DNA of 64,000 nt from a virus (Duplodnaviria; Caudoviricetes), in the IMG/VR virus record IMGVR_UViG_3300005937_000267, positions 865 through 64,864 of that record. The stretch is one strand, 5' to 3'. Below are positions 11,331 to 56,904 of the stretch, one piece after another. Positions within the stretch are counted from its first letter, which is position 1; each line of letters starts with the position of its first letter. The notes under the pieces were generated by a model. The model worked only from the letters and a program-made list of their open reading frames with translations. It was not told the origin of the DNA and ran no database searches. A program made the translations under genes and the position numbers.

Positions 11331-11357
11331 TGTTCTCTTTCCTCTCTTCGGTGGTGA

Positions 11358-21203: not shown

Positions 21204-22286
21204 TCAGAAGATCTGCGGGACGGGCGGAGCGGGCCGCTCACCCTGCGGTGTAGGCTGACCTGGCTCTTGCGCCAGCTGAGGCGCTGGGGCCGGCTGAGCC
21301 TGCTGCGGCGGGGCCTGCTGCGGCGAAGTCGCTTGTGGCTGCTGGCCCTGCTGGGACGCGAGGTACGCCTGGATGATCTGCTGCTGCATCTCGTCCGTGA
21401 TCACCGGCGTCCCGATCTCTCCGTTGCCGACCGAGGGCGTCGGAGGCGCTTGAGGCGCTGGCTGAGTCGCTTGAGGCGCCGGAGCCGCTGGGGCCGTCTG
21501 CGGCGGCCACTGCTGGGGCTGACCCTGCGTCAGATCAGGCATCGGCGGGGCGGCGGCCGGAGGCGGGGCCGGGAGCGGAGCCTGTGACGCGGGCTGCGGG
21601 ACAGGCTGCGGAGCGGGCTGCGGTGGCTGTTGATCTTGCTGTGCCCCCGGCGCCTGCGCGTACTGCTGCGGCGGCGGCGGGGCAGCCATCGGGGCCTGGT
21701 ACGCGCCGGTCTGCGGGGGCGGGAACCCCTGCTGTCCCATGGGCATCCCCATCATCTGCGACGCCGGCGGGTTGATCGTCTCGACGTTGTTCCTGATCAC
21801 GCCGCTGTTCTTGGGGTACTCCCTGTGGGTCAGCTTGATGCGCGCCTGGCGATGGACTAGATCAGTCGCGATCTGGTCCGGTGACGGGTTGGTGTTGAAG
21901 TACGCCTCGTTGAGTCCGAGCGCGTCCATCTGGCGGAAGAAGATCGCCAGCGCGTTCGGGTTCTCCGGCGACACGGTGATGTTGCCCCATGCGACCCGTC
22001 CCGCGTACGGCCCGGTGATCACGCGCCACGTGATCTTGAACATGATCTTTCCGTTGCTCGACTTGGCGGCCTCGGACGCCGAGACCTCCATGTCGTACTC
22101 TGCGATCGGCAGCGGTTGGAGCTGAGTCCCGGCCTCCTCGCGCCACTGCTGCCAGTTCCACGACTCTTGCTCGACGCTGATCCCGCCTCCTCCGGGGGCG
22201 GGGATGGTGCCCATGCCCGGCCACTGGCCCAGCTGCGCTTGCGGTTGCGGGACGCCGGGGACACCCGGCATCTGTGGTGCGGTCAT
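21204..22286 (-). CDS. DUF669-like ssDNA-binding protein with long Pro/Gln/Ala-rich tail
   Basis: LPIAEYDMEV...KSSNGKIMFKITWRVITGPYAGR; adjacent to Sak4 and exonuclease. Confidence 0.7.
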   Translation of the reverse strand: MTAPQMPGVPGVPQPQAQLGQWPGMGTIPAPGGGGISVEQESWNWQQWREEAGTQLQPLPIAEYDMEVSASEAAKSSNGKIMFKITWRVITGPYAGRVAWGNITVSPENPNALAIFFRQMDALGLNEAYFNTNPSPDQIATDLVHRQARIKLTHREYPKNSGVIRNNVETINPPASQMMGMPMGQQGFPPPQTGAYQAPMAAPPPPQQYAQAPGAQQDQQPPQPAPQPVPQPASQAPLPAPPPAAAPPMPDLTQGQPQQWPPQTAPAAPAPQATQPAPQAPPTPSVGNGEIGTPVITDEMQQQIIQAYLASQQGQQPQATSPQQAPPQQAQPAPAPQLAQEPGQPTPQGERPAPPVPQIF

Positions 22287-33597: not shown

Positions 33598-33896
33598 CGC
33601 TCGACGCTCCCGTCCGCACTCATGATCATCGTCTCGGGATCGAAGCCGCGCTGGAGGTCCTCCTGCGTCGGCTCGCTCGGGCCGTAGTCGACCGCCGCGG
33701 CGGCGACGTACTGCGCGATCAGCGCGTCCACGTCGCTGAGCTGCTTGTCCCGCTCCCTCAGAGCGGGCTCGAGCCCGCGCATGTTCTTGGCGCCCAGCGC
33801 CCGGGCGATCCGGACGCGGGCGGTGTGGTACCGGGCCAGCGGGGTGGCCAGGTCGTCGAGCAGCTGCTCGAGCAGCTCGTAGTCGGGGAGAGCCAT
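33594..33896 (-). CDS. Hypothetical protein
   Basis: MALPDYELL... after CCGACGAGAGGAAG element. Confidence 0.55.
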   Translation of the reverse strand: MALPDYELLEQLLDDLATPLARYHTARVRIARALGAKNMRGLEPALRERDKQLSDVDALIAQYVAAAAVDYGPSEPTQEDLQRGFDPETMIMSADGSVER

Positions 33897-33964
33897 GATC
33901 GTCTTCCTCTCGTCGGATGCTTCCTTCCCGTCGGTCCCGACACTACCACGGACCGGGAGACGGG

Positions 33965-38894: not shown

Positions 38895-39457
38895 TGATCG
38901 ACTTGTACCGGGTCGTCAGGTGGCTCGAGCCGAGCGTGGACAAGCAGATCCTGGTGCTCGGCGGCGAGCACAAGATCCTGGAGGTGAAGAAGCACTGGGC
39001 GGCCAGCATCTGGGCGATGCTGCGGCTGGTGGTCGCGGCCGGGCTGTACGTCTGGAACGCCCTCAACCCGGTGGAGTGGGCGTACTGGGTGGTCACCGCA
39101 GTGCTGATCATGGTGATGCTCCAGGCGCTGTGGCACGTCGCCGGCGAGTTCCGGGACCGGTTCGTGATCACCAACCAGCGGATCTTCCGGGTGAACGGCA
39201 TCCTGGGCACGGACCGGGCGAGCATCCCGATCCTGCGCATCCTGGACATCACGACGAAGCACCCGCTGATGGGGCGCATCCTGAACTACGGGCACTTCGT
39301 CTTCGAGTCGGCGGCGCAGATCCAGGGACTGTACGAGATCACGTACGTCCGGGACGTGGACTACCGCGAGCACGTGCTGCGGATGGCGATCCACGGCGAC
39401 GAGATGCACGAGCTCGTGCGCATGAGCGGCGACGACGAGGAGGACGACGGGACGTGA
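38894..39457 (+). CDS. Membrane protein with bacterial PH domain (bPH_2 / YdbS-like)
   Basis: Two TM helices then FVITNQRIF...SIPILRILDIT...GRILNYG. Confidence 0.75.
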   Translation: MIDLYRVVRWLEPSVDKQILVLGGEHKILEVKKHWAASIWAMLRLVVAAGLYVWNALNPVEWAYWVVTAVLIMVMLQALWHVAGEFRDRFVITNQRIFRVNGILGTDRASIPILRILDITTKHPLMGRILNYGHFVFESAAQIQGLYEITYVRDVDYREHVLRMAIHGDEMHELVRMSGDDEEDDGT

Positions 39458-39699
39458 TCGACTGCGTGGTGGTGTTCGTGATCGCGGGCGAGGAGAGGCG
39501 CCTGCCGGGCAAGATCAACGGTCACGGAGGGGCGTTCCTCGACGTCAGCGTGGACCCGACCGCGGTCGTCGTCGACTACCCGCCCAGCCAGATCGTCGCG
39601 GTGCACGTCCCGGACCAGAGCATCCCCGTGACGCGGCTGCTCGGCGCGCAGGCCGGGCCGACCATCCGGCTGATCATGACGGGCGGGCCGTCGCCGTGA
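39454..39699 (+). CDS. Hypothetical protein
   Basis: GTGA overlap, 81 aa. Confidence 0.5.
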   Translation: MIDCVVVFVIAGEERRLPGKINGHGGAFLDVSVDPTAVVVDYPPSQIVAVHVPDQSIPVTRLLGAQAGPTIRLIMTGGPSP

Positions 39700-40073
39700 T
39701 CGAGCTGCTGGGCACGGCGATGGTGACGATGGTCGTCGTCGCCTGGTCTCTGCTCGGCGCGTACGGCCTGCTCCGGCTCCGGTCGGACCTCGCGGCGCGG
39801 AGACCGAGGCCGAGGCCGAGGCCGGCGATCCCTGGCGATCGCGCGTCCCCGTGTCGCGACTGCGGGACGCTGATCATGGTCGAGCAAGAGTCATGGAACT
39901 GGCAGCTGGTCGACGAGCTGAGCTGGACCGAGACCGAGGACGAGTTACGCGGTGATGATCAGATCATCACGACCAAGGGCAAGTGGGAGCTGGACGAGAC
40001 CGCGCAGCGCTGCGACCTCTGCTCCGCGATCAGGCGCGCTGAGCTCGAGTACTACGGGTTCACCCGATCATGA
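39696..40073 (+). CDS. Membrane-anchored CxxC...CxxC protein carrying copied SSB and major-tail peptides
   Basis: TM helix; CRDC and CDLC flank VEQESWNWQ and LSWTETED-ELRGDDQIITTKGK-WEL. Confidence 0.75.
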   Translation: MIELLGTAMVTMVVVAWSLLGAYGLLRLRSDLAARRPRPRPRPAIPGDRASPCRDCGTLIMVEQESWNWQLVDELSWTETEDELRGDDQIITTKGKWELDETAQRCDLCSAIRRAELEYYGFTRS

Positions 40074-41374
40074 CTCGCCGCGTCGGCCCGACGCTGGAGG
40101 GCTCCCTCGCCGAGTGGCAGGAGGGGGAGACCACCCTCAGGGAGCTCGTCGGCGAGAAGGTGCGCCGGTTCTGCTGGGCGACGATCCCGCCGCTCAGCGT
40201 CGCGACGATGATCACCGGGACGATCGGGTGGGCCAAGTACCGGCTCGAGCAGACGATCAGCAGCGAGGAGCTCGCGACGATCATGACGCGAGTTGCGATG
40301 CTCGGCGTGCCGGGTCTCTCGGTGACCGTGGGCGTGCTGCTCATGTACGGCATGCACCTGGCCGAGACCATGCCGCCCATGTTCCTGGAGGAGGTCGCGC
40401 CGCTGGGTCCGAGGCGCTCGCCGGGAGACCTCGAGTCGTGGGAGCACTGGCTGTACCGGGGCGTGCGGGTCGGCCGCTGGCAGAGCCTGGACGGGTCGGG
40501 GAGAGCGGGCGCGATCGCCCGGATCCCGATCATGGACGAGCACGTGTTCGTCGCGGCGCGCACCCGGTGGGGGAAGTCCACCGTGGAGTGGGCGATTCTG
40601 GAGGACCTCGAGGAGGCGATCAAGCAGGGCGTCGTGCGGGTGATCTTGTTCGACCCGAAGAACGGCATGGAGATGGCCGCCGCGGTCAACCTCAAGTACG
40701 TCGCCCAGAGCGACTTCTACTTCGGCGAGGACGTCGGCGAGGTCGACCCTCACACGGGCAAGTGGGAGGGCCAGCTCTACGAGGAGACGTTCGTCAAGCC
40801 GCTCGAGGACCTGGTGCGCGAGATGCGCCGGCGCGCGGACAGGATCAGGTTCAAGGACCGCAGGCACCACGCGAAGCCGGGCGACCCGCACATCATCGTC
40901 ATGGTCGACGAGCTCGCCCAGCTGGTCCGCGAGACCACGCCGACTCCGGTCAAGAACCGGATCACCAACGCGATCTTGACGCTGTGCCACCAGGGCGCGG
41001 CCTGCGGCATCACGGTGATCGGCTGCACGCAGCACCCGAGCATCGAGGAGATCGGCCCGATCCGCCACGGCCTGACGTTCGGGCTGTGCGGCAAGGTCAA
41101 GTCGGCGAAGGCCGTGGACATGGTGCTCGGCGAGGGGAGCCGCCGGCTCGGCTCGAGGGCGGACAAGCTGGACCGGGAGATCACAGGCGTGTGGTACACC
41201 TCGGAGTCCGGGCCGATGGCGCTGCGCGCCCAGCACTCGGGTCCCGAGTTCGGCGAGGACGAGCCCCCGCCGGCCGACCGGCGACCGCCGCCGAGCGAGC
41301 GGGACGAGGAGGCGGCGGACCGGCTGTGGGAGCGCATGCGGTCGCGGCGCGCGGCTGATCGGATGGCGGCGTGA
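40070..41374 (+). CDS. FtsK/SpoIIIE (TraB-like) DNA translocase ATPase
   Basis: Two N-terminal TM helices; ARTRWGKS Walker A, ILFDPKNGME, IIVMVDE Walker B, GAACGITVIGCTQHP. Confidence 0.8.
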   Translation: MTRRVGPTLEGSLAEWQEGETTLRELVGEKVRRFCWATIPPLSVATMITGTIGWAKYRLEQTISSEELATIMTRVAMLGVPGLSVTVGVLLMYGMHLAETMPPMFLEEVAPLGPRRSPGDLESWEHWLYRGVRVGRWQSLDGSGRAGAIARIPIMDEHVFVAARTRWGKSTVEWAILEDLEEAIKQGVVRVILFDPKNGMEMAAAVNLKYVAQSDFYFGEDVGEVDPHTGKWEGQLYEETFVKPLEDLVREMRRRADRIRFKDRRHHAKPGDPHIIVMVDELAQLVRETTPTPVKNRITNAILTLCHQGAACGITVIGCTQHPSIEEIGPIRHGLTFGLCGKVKSAKAVDMVLGEGSRRLGSRADKLDREITGVWYTSESGPMALRAQHSGPEFGEDEPPPADRRPPPSERDEEAADRLWERMRSRRAADRMAA

Positions 41375-43132: not shown

Positions 43133-43208
43133 GGGACCGGGATGTCGACAGCTCGCCCGGTCTCCCGGTAGGATGGGGTGAGGACCGGCAGACGAGAGGA
43201 AGACGATC

Positions 43209-43571
43209 ATGGCGGGGAGCACGACCAACGGTCAGGAGGACTTCGCTGCCGTGCTGCAGGAGCGCGGCGAGCACATGCGCAGGCCCGGCAGGCGGTACGT
43301 GACCAGAGACCACCCGCAGATGGGGCTGCGGGGCGAGCTCAGAGAGATCGAGGACGTTCAGATGGTACTGGGCGATCGTCCGGTGGAGGACAGGGGCAGC
43401 GGTGCCAGGGCGGATGCCATACCGGCCCGCCCTGGCGTCGCGCACGACGCCCGGGGGTTCGGCGCGCCGTTCCAAGTCTGGGCGATCGACCCCGAGACGA
43501 TCGAGGGGATGGAGATCGTCGAGCGGGCGTGGCCGATAGTCGATCGCGACCCGCGAGGGAGGCTCCCGTGA
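43209..43571 (+). CDS. Hypothetical protein
   Basis: ATG after GAGAGGAAG RBS. Confidence 0.5.
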   Translation: MAGSTTNGQEDFAAVLQERGEHMRRPGRRYVTRDHPQMGLRGELREIEDVQMVLGDRPVEDRGSGARADAIPARPGVAHDARGFGAPFQVWAIDPETIEGMEIVERAWPIVDRDPRGRLP

Positions 43572-56140: not shown

Positions 56141-56387
56141 GCTTCGATGCCCGACCAAGCTGCATGGGATCATCCGGGGCGGAGTCCTGGAGATCAAGTG
56201 TCGGTCGAGCCGCTGCGGCGCTGGTTCGGACGTGGTCGTGCTGCACCAGTTCAGCATCCTTACGGGTGAGTTGATCAAGACCCTCAGATTCAGAGAACCT
56301 CGGATCAGAGAGCGCCAGACGCCGTCCGACGACAGCAAAGGACGGCAGCATGCCTCTCTCGACAGCAATTCCCTACGGCATCCGTGA
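56133..56387 (+). CDS. Small Cys-containing protein
   Basis: LRCPTKLHG...EIKCRSSRCG. Confidence 0.5.
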   Translation: MTELRCPTKLHGIIRGGVLEIKCRSSRCGAGSDVVVLHQFSILTGELIKTLRFREPRIRERQTPSDDSKGRQHASLDSNSLRHP

Positions 56388-56904
56388 CATCAAGGTCACC
56401 GGGTACGACGACGCCGAGGGTACCGATCTCTCAGCCACCTCAGTCGATCTTCCCTACGCTCGCACGCTGAGCTGGACAGAGACCGAGGACTTCGAGGAGC
56501 TTCGAGGCGACGACCAGATCATCACGACCAAGGGCAAGGGTCCCGAGGTCGAGTGGGAGCTGGAGGCCGGCGGTCTGTCGCTTCCCGCGCTCAAGATCAT
56601 CGACGGCGGAACGCTCACCGAGAGCGGGACTACTCCAGCCATCAAGATCACCTACGCCAAGCTGGTCACCGAGTCCAAGCCTTTCTTCAAGCTGGAGGGC
56701 CAAGTAATCAGCGACTCGGGCGGCGACGTGCACTTGGTGATGGATCGCTGCCGGGCCTCAGGCGACTTCGAGGGCGAGTTCACCGACGGCGAGTTCTTCC
56801 TCACCGCGTGCGCCGGGGTGGCGCTCGGATCCCGGATCACTGGCCGCGAGGGAACCGTCTTCGAGTTCATCCAGAACGAGACCGCCGACGCCATCGGCGC
56901 ATAA
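56350..56904 (+). CDS. Major tail (tube) protein
   Basis: 184 aa; PYGIRDIKV, ELRGDD hairpin, precedes chaperones and tape measure. Confidence 0.85.
   Translation: MPLSTAIPYGIRDIKVTGYDDAEGTDLSATSVDLPYARTLSWTETEDFEELRGDDQIITTKGKGPEVEWELEAGGLSLPALKIIDGGTLTESGTTPAIKITYAKLVTESKPFFKLEGQVISDSGGDVHLVMDRCRASGDFEGEFTDGEFFLTACAGVALGSRITGREGTVFEFIQNETADAIGA

Follow-up and report, generated by a model that had tools for sequence, protein, structure and literature searches.

A patchwork insertion from major tail and SSB-like genes in a zinc-ribbon gene coupled to an FtsK-like gene of an uncultured soil phage

Why should a small zinc-ribbon protein of a phage carry, in the loop between its two knuckles, peptides that are also encoded by the SSB-like gene and the major tail gene of the same genome? 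This question is raised by the open reading frame (ORF) at positions 39696-40073 of the window, i.e., the whole stretch of 64,000 nucleotides analysed here, taken from an IMG/VR virus record of 64,864 bases that is complete by CheckV. The initial annotation, made from the sequence alone, described the ORF as a membrane-anchored zinc-ribbon protein that displays recoded copies of the phage's own SSB and tail-tube peptides, and proposed that it could be a decoy for immune sensors or a poison of tail or SSB assembly in competing phages. The present analysis favours another reading, with a probability of roughly 0.55, namely, that this is the zinc-ribbon gene of an FtsK partner into which a patchwork of templated pieces was recently inserted, in this lineage only and with no demonstrated function.

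The phage is an uncultured soil phage. A single DNA run, a rhizosphere metagenome that is probably the source sample, is listed among the sequencing runs that hold its DNA, and no RNA run with phage sequence is listed among them. Its structural genes are akin to those in phages of Gordonia, Mycobacterium, Microbacterium, and Arthrobacter, with protein identities of at most 54%, and no near-identical DNA was found among deposited phages. A prophage and host search of 185,579 species genomes, with the FtsK-like protein as the query, returned no match. To judge from protein identities, the phages of this group evidently swap modules, e.g., the relative L007/L023 is 93% identical to the window in the major tail protein (MTP) and 64% identical in the FtsK-like protein.

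The zinc-ribbon gene and its family

The ORF (39696-40073, plus strand, as for all features below unless stated otherwise) encodes 125 aa from a GTG start, and is supported by homologues at the equivalent position and by an HMM family search. Its start overlaps the stop of the upstream gene (GTGA), and its end overlaps by 4 nt (ATGA) the start of the translationally coupled gene for an FtsK/SpoIIIE-like membrane ATPase (40070-41374). The membrane anchor of the initial annotation is borne out by the AlphaFold model and by conserved family columns: the N-terminal helix with its transmembrane segment (residues 2-35, 39699-39800) is predicted with pLDDT values of 86-98 and contains the conserved residues W17 and G24. 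After the transmembrane helix comes the positively charged stretch RRPRPRPRP; taken with the positive-inside rule and the topology of a fused form (see below), it suggests that the C-terminal domain is cytoplasmic and that the zinc ribbon faces the cytoplasm. Zinc knuckle 1 is CRDC (C53 and C56, 39852-39863), and zinc knuckle 2 is CDLC (C106 and C109, 40011-40022), which is preceded by R105 and followed by the conserved helix AIxxAELxYYGF. In the family alignment, C56, C106, L108, C109, and I112 are invariant, and C53 and R105 are near-invariant.

No Pfam match above the cut-off was obtained for the ORF, nor any match in PHROG, NCBIfam, or PADLOC, and the ESM Atlas held no informative neighbour (the best score, 0.86, lies in the chance range). 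Relatives were located via the FtsK-like protein (58-67% identity among the relatives), and in their gene neighbourhoods eight homologues of the ORF either lie immediately upstream of the equivalent FtsK-like gene or are fused to it. An HMM of the zinc-ribbon family matches the ORF at E 4e-34; searched against 1.84 billion representatives it gave 14 matches, 12 of them other small proteins of identical layout, in which a transmembrane helix with a conserved W and G is followed by a CxDC knuckle, and a short loop then leads to an RCDLC knuckle and a conserved helix. The ORF matches this unnamed family (P0009-P0014 and P0016-P0021; L005, L006, L023, and L024; uncultured actinophage-like contigs) in the W and G of the transmembrane helix, in CxDC, in RCDLC, and in the AIxxAELxYYGF helix. 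The family loci and the window also have a gene order in common, namely, a bPH_2 membrane protein, a gene of about 80 aa, the zinc-ribbon gene, the FtsK-like gene, a TerS-like gene, and a terminase-like gene. The loops and C-terminal tails vary in sequence across the family, and several relatives have acidic or His-rich tails.

In L023, the relative with the MTP closest to that of the window (the 93% given above), the zinc ribbon and the FtsK-like protein are a single polypeptide of 534 aa, with an acidic linker between the two parts. This fusion and the 4-nt overlap in the window support a physical partnership of the two proteins, and the gene arrangement suggests that the zinc-ribbon protein is an accessory subunit of the FtsK-like translocase. 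Among more distant FtsK-like loci (40% identity), L010 has a 49-aa ORF with only a transmembrane segment in the zinc-ribbon position, and L011 has no ORF of at least 50 aa there. What is defined in this way is a gene family so far uncharacterised, whose members are small membrane proteins with a zinc ribbon that are coupled to, and in one relative fused with, a phage FtsK-like translocase.

The insertion, its source genes, and its assembly

In the 15 homologues that have both knuckles, including the eight beside or fused to the FtsK-like gene, the inter-knuckle loop is 10-16 aa long (mode 11), whereas in the ORF it is 49 aa long, with 38 extra aa from the MTP and SSB-like genes. Taking out residues 62-99 (39879-39992) leaves GTLIM joined to DETAQR, a loop of 11 aa that fits the family pattern GxLxxLDxxxR. 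Since the loop without the insert has both the modal length and the pattern of the family, exactly 114 nt were inserted and the target sequence was left intact. The initial annotation had named, as a result that would refute its proposal, homologues whose loops are unrelated to each phage's own SSB and MTP sequences. At the level of the family this is what is seen: the loops of all 15 two-knuckle homologues are too short to hold such peptides. No other protein with the insert was present in a collection of 5.8 billion clusters, and no second long-loop member was found in the HMM family search of the 1.84 billion representatives. When 50,697 phage records were searched with the ORF by tblastn, the matches were MTP genes and, at chance level, two hypothetical proteins of E. 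coli jumbo phages. Nor was the MTP hairpin peptide found grafted elsewhere in IMG/VR, where the pattern GDDQIITTKGK occurs only in the MTP gene of one relative. The insertion is real, clean, and one-off, and it is known from one phage in one sample. In the AlphaFold model, the transmembrane helix and the C-terminal helix are confident and the insert is disordered (pLDDT 46-52), the latter being weak evidence, as the alignment has no depth there. The insert is acidic, with 13 D/E versus 3 K/R in 38 residues and a net charge of about -10.

Read from its 5' end, the insert begins with the block VEQESWNWQ (39879-39906), which is identical at 27 of 28 nt to positions 22148-22175 of the SSB-like gene (minus strand, in frame, residues 38-46); over a longer stretch of 35 nt, 32 positions agree. 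A linker of about 10-12 nt follows (39907-39916, within LVDE), for which no third source was found in the window at up to three mismatches. The remainder consists of three MTP-derived blocks identified by nucleotide alignment to the MTP gene: LSWTETED (39918-39941); ELRGDDQIITTKGK (39942-39983), which holds the five "recoded" codons and a 24-nt run identical to the resident MTP; and WEL (39984-39992), from which nucleotide identity runs on to 39994. Positions 39918-39992 align codon for codon with 56467-56565, apart from two in-frame gaps in the copy, one of 6 nt (FE) and one of 15 nt (GPEVE). The copied blocks contain 7 substitutions in 75 nt for MTP and 1 in 28 nt for the SSB-like gene; all eight are synonymous, and six of them fall in five consecutive codons. 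Both matches, with the two whole-codon deletions and the synonymous pattern, had been reported in the initial annotation and were reproduced here. Segments of 378 nt drawn at random from the window have no more than 13-16-mers in common with the remaining genome, known repeats apart; the SSB and MTP matches are therefore homology and not chance.

The two source genes are not equally well identified. The naming of the major tail gene (56350-56904) stood up well (phrog_4971, E 2.6e-64), and a Foldseek search with its model matched tail-tube structures, i.e., 9jgh, 8xkn, and the tubes of Bxb1 and Douge. "SSB-like" is a weak label for the 360-aa ORF at 21204-22286 (minus strand), which matches phrog_378 at E 5e-7 and phrog_7778 at E 5e-4, reaches 18 bits for DUF669 against a cut-off of 21, and has no NCBIfam match. 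The copied SSB block belongs to a short acidic-aromatic motif that precedes the DUF669-like domain and is conserved in the SSB-like proteins of relatives; the block contains the ExE[ST]xxWxQ motif common to them, and the relatives' own versions are highly diverged (TEPETINWAQW, SQPETLDWSQW). The homologous stretch of the MTP (residues 40-72, 56467-56565) lies in a long, flexible beta-hairpin (residues 39-72 in the model) with RGDD (52-55) at its tip. Of the earlier proposal that ELRGDD is the inter-subunit hairpin of the tube, the model thus upholds the hairpin, with this segment at its tip. ELRGDD is invariant in 42 MTPs (58-93% identity), none of which has an indel in the hairpin segment. 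Two residues that are likewise invariant in these MTPs, F48 and G64, are missing from the copy in the ORF, which is therefore not a faithful MTP replica. The two deletions leave hairpin arms of 10 and 11 residues, and these shortened arms could still pair.

Logan unitigs, a MEGAHIT contig (k=141), and the IMG/VR record all contain the mosaic, and the three may stem from one sample. A 692-nt Logan unitig (depth 8.1) covers 39289-39980 and takes in the SSB block together with the linker, MTP block 1, and the TTA CGC codons. A second unitig of 6.4 kb (depth 8.7) starts at 39954, spans the AAG-TGG deletion junction, and continues into zinc knuckle 2 and on to the FtsK-like gene. The only branch of the graph is the 27-33-nt stretch at 39951-39983, which is common to the MTP gene of another phage; a 659-nt contig of that gene, reading ...GAC TTC GAA GAG CTT CGT GGT GAT GAT CAG..., joins there. 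The MEGAHIT contig, from ENA, spans the branching stretch and agrees with the window at 100% identity along 14,931 nt. The check for mis-assembly across 39870-40000 that the initial annotation called for, made here on assemblies that possibly represent one sample, thus supports the sequence.

Codon differences and alleles of the major tail gene

The resident MTP was compared with five other MTP alleles, all of which have homologous DNA over the 75 nt of the copied segment. The encoded peptide is identical in the six alleles, save for one Q in the part that is absent from the copy, and the alleles differ from each other at 5-9 of the 75 nt, always synonymously. The copy in the ORF differs from the resident MTP at 7/75 nt and from the alleles of related phages at 5-8/75 nt. 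The copy is thus no closer to the resident gene than to related alleles, so that the description of the tail-tube copy as the phage's own peptide is only partly right. Four of the seven differences (ACA, CGA, GAC, GAC) are private to the resident MTP, the copy having the state of the other alleles, and one (GGT/GGC) is polymorphic among alleles. The other two are private to the copy; both lie in its TTA codon (CTT to TTA), are synonymous, and run against the GC bias of the genome. MTP alleles reading CTT CGT GGT GAT GAT occur in the same run, where the shared 33-mer has a depth of 22.8 versus about 8 for the phage. Among the alleles compared, no donor with the exact codons of the copy was found.

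This pattern indicates that the all-synonymous differences reflect purifying selection on the MTP genes and are almost uninformative about selection on the ORF. The claim that synonymous recoding reveals selection on the displayed peptide does not hold up, since four of the seven differences are private to the resident MTP and only the TTA codon is private to the copy. On the reading favoured here, an all-synonymous pattern between a copy and its apparent source within one genome can arise by allele exchange, without selection on the copy, and this calls for caution in similar scans. A capture that dates back to the divergence of the alleles should have led, under neutral evolution, to several amino-acid changes. 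The event was probably recent, because the SSB block is identical to the resident gene at 27 of 28 nt while the motif is highly diverged in relatives; the MTP template would therefore have been a different allele, either that of a co-infecting relative or one that has since been replaced.

Several features of the copied codons count in their own right as points against an accident. Both blocks stand in their native sense frame, for which the chance is about 1/24 (0.04), the SSB block being open in six of six frames and the MTP block in four of six. Amino-acid changes number 0 in the 34 copied codons, and the two changes private to the copy are synonymous, in a single codon, and against the GC bias. 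The copied blocks include the conserved motif of each source protein, the hairpin arms were trimmed to similar lengths (10 and 11) that could still form a hairpin, and the exact donor allele is missing from the alleles compared. Native frames and unchanged codons are also compatible with a recent capture followed by tolerance of a peptide that is soluble, acidic, and in its native frame.

Four further candidates were rejected. Had selection driven the resident MTP away from the copy, its private changes should be enriched in the segment, and they are not (4/19 observed, 3.3 expected). The differences are not adenine-specific, which speaks against DGR-type mutagenesis, and the RNA of the insert folds no better than shuffled sequence (z -0.20), which speaks against a role at the RNA level. 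Antisense regulation is excluded, both copies being in sense-to-sense orientation with their sources.

Origin of the insertion, other readings, and related systems

In the favoured reading, an insertion of 114 nt would have landed at the tip of the inter-knuckle loop, the sequence-variable part of the family, as a patchwork of 28 nt from the resident SSB-like gene and three adjacent MTP pieces of 24, 42, and about 11 nt, with a filler of about 10-12 nt joining the SSB and MTP pieces. The MTP template was most likely an allele that a co-replicating relative carried or that this lineage had at an earlier time. Illegitimate recombination is the most likely origin, through either template switching of the polymerase or break repair with filler DNA. 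Multi-segment templated insertions that arise by template switching at microhomology have been described in other systems (PMC8421209). The microhomology at the junctions is 0-3 nt here, i.e., GAG where FE is deleted and AG where GPEVE is deleted. The insertion appears to have persisted with the reading frame, the zinc ligands, and the translational coupling to the FtsK-like gene all preserved, and the insert itself probably has no dedicated function.

Rather unlikely is a functional mimic that displays the ELRGDD hairpin tip and the SSB-like N-terminal motif in the cytoplasm, at the membrane, and is kept by selection. Taken together and with the same reserve, its possible forms are a decoy that titrates a host sensor, a dominant-negative cap for the tube or SSB assemblies of competitors, and a docking site for partners at the FtsK-like machine. 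The sense frame of both blocks (P about 0.04), the absence of non-synonymous changes in the 34 copied codons, the inclusion of both conserved motifs (ELRGDD and ExE[ST]xxWxQ), and the modelled position of the MTP segment as an exposed long hairpin with RGDD at its tip all speak for it; the copy is also as far from each MTP allele as the alleles are from each other, which would imply constraint on the peptide if the capture were old. The biological precedent named in the initial annotation is correct: DSR2 senses the monomeric tail tube protein, which triggers it, and the phage protein DSAD1 blocks this by competing for an overlapping site (PMC11087589). DSAD1 is alike in idea only, as a phage protein that occupies the sensor site of the tail tube protein (PMC11087589); no sequence similarity between it and the ORF was detected, and no description of it as a copied tail-tube peptide was found.

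Against a mimic, however, stand the single phage and single sample from which the insert is known and the short loops of all 15 two-knuckle homologues; a second insert-bearing homologue with a conserved mimic peptide was found in none of the phage records, the protein clusters, and the HMM family search. The synonymous pattern is explained by allele variation of the MTP, the MTP-invariant F48 and G64 were deleted, and the insert is not predicted to fold. Known defence and anti-defence families show no similarity to the ORF, and one membrane-tethered copy would be an odd design for a decoy that works by titration. Were the mimic true, it would be the first phage decoy or mimic built from peptides of conserved phage genes, be they its own or those of a close relative, and would matter for phage-host immunity.

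More doubtful still is an older insertion that is mildly useful as a structure, namely, an acidic, soluble spacer that alters the reach or regulation of the zinc ribbon beside the FtsK-like motor, so that length and charge (net about -10) would matter and not the identity of the MTP and SSB peptides. The strong acidity of the insert (13 D/E versus 3 K/R), the variable loops and C-terminal tails of the family with several acidic or His-rich tails among them, and the acidic linker that joins the zinc ribbon to FtsK in the fused relative agree with such a spacer, but no other family member has a long loop, and selection on composition alone would not hold all 34 copied residues unchanged. As for an assembly or sequencing artefact, i.e., a chimeric join via short repeats in a mixed phage population, the break of the Logan contigs at a stretch also found in the MTP gene of another phage that co-occurs in the run, and the possible descent of all assemblies from identical reads, hardly make it credible when one phage-depth unitig covers without a break everything from the SSB block via the linker and MTP block 1 to the private TTA CGC codons, a second leads from the AAG-TGG junction to the conserved second knuckle and on into the FtsK-like gene, the k=141 contig and the IMG/VR record agree exactly, the other pairing at the branch would break both a conserved ORF and an MTP gene, and in-frame deletions and private synonymous codons are not products of chimeric joins.

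If the templated patchwork insertion into an FtsK-partner gene is the true reading, the locus would be a clear natural example of a micro-insertion templated by several sources, and would extend phage mosaicism down to pieces of 24-42 nt. In actinobacteriophages, mosaicism arises by illegitimate recombination, and related phages trade modules. The joints of classical phage mosaics lie at the boundaries of genes or domains and whole genes are moved, whereas here pieces of 24-42 nt were moved into the middle of a gene. To our knowledge, template switching of this kind is not documented in actinophages. The filler-DNA insertions of the MMBIR/MMEJ type, which are described mainly in eukaryotic genomes, resemble the insert in their short pieces from distant loci, their microhomology of 0-3 nt, and their short skips within one template (PMC8421209). 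Unlike these, the insert described here is in frame, in sense orientation for both of its sources, and inside an intact gene.

Zinc-ribbon protein and FtsK-like ATPase

Adjacent genes of the window, both on the + strand, encode the zinc-ribbon protein (39696-40073) and the FtsK-like ATPase (40070-41374). In the relative whose major tail protein (MTP) is closest to that of the window's phage (93% identity), the two are fused into one 534-aa ORF (L023:2501-4105; ENA contig_137175), in which an acidic, His-rich linker connects the zinc-ribbon part to the ATPase. This single ORF argues that the two proteins work together. In the more distant FtsK-like loci L010 and L011 (40% identity), the zinc-ribbon gene is absent, and in L010 its place is occupied by a 49-aa ORF consisting of a transmembrane segment only (L010:429-578); a small membrane partner is thus predicted to be the basic component, to which a zinc ribbon is added in some phages only.

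Judged from protein identities, mosaicism between the window's phage and its close relative (L007/L023) is strong: identity is 93% for the MTP but only 64%, over 86% of its length, for the FtsK-like protein. Past its portal-region genes, this relative has a 539-aa Zeta_toxin/AAA_33 gene as well.

Sequence composition and repeats

The tetranucleotide GATC is found 997 times in the window (1-64000), where base composition alone would give 208, an O/E of 4.8, with TCGA at an O/E of 2.9 and CTAG at 0.33; three GATC sites lie within the insert between the zinc knuckles (39879-39992) and its left junction. One Logan contig from a rhizosphere metagenome run agrees with the window to 40014, i.e., just past the codon of the first Cys of the second knuckle, followed by 50 nt of dissimilar sequence (GGAGATCGAAGCCTTGCAGCGCGAAATCGA); it may stem from a variant, a relative or an unrelated organism. 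Elsewhere, a perfect 23-nt inverted repeat, GACGAGAGGAAGACGATCATGGC (33892-33914 and 43191-43213), looks like a shared ribosome-binding-site-plus-start region serving opposite strands, and a related motif, TTCCTCTCTTCGG, recurs at 11331, 12035, 12234, and 16905.

N-terminal motif of the SSB-like proteins

The SSB-like proteins of the window's phage (22100-22230, - strand) and of the related loci L017 and L018 have in common the short N-terminal motif ExE[ST]xxWxQW, which is acidic-aromatic in character. It is located within a Pro/Gly-rich region, N-terminal to the DUF669-like domain, and may be a partner-binding linear motif.
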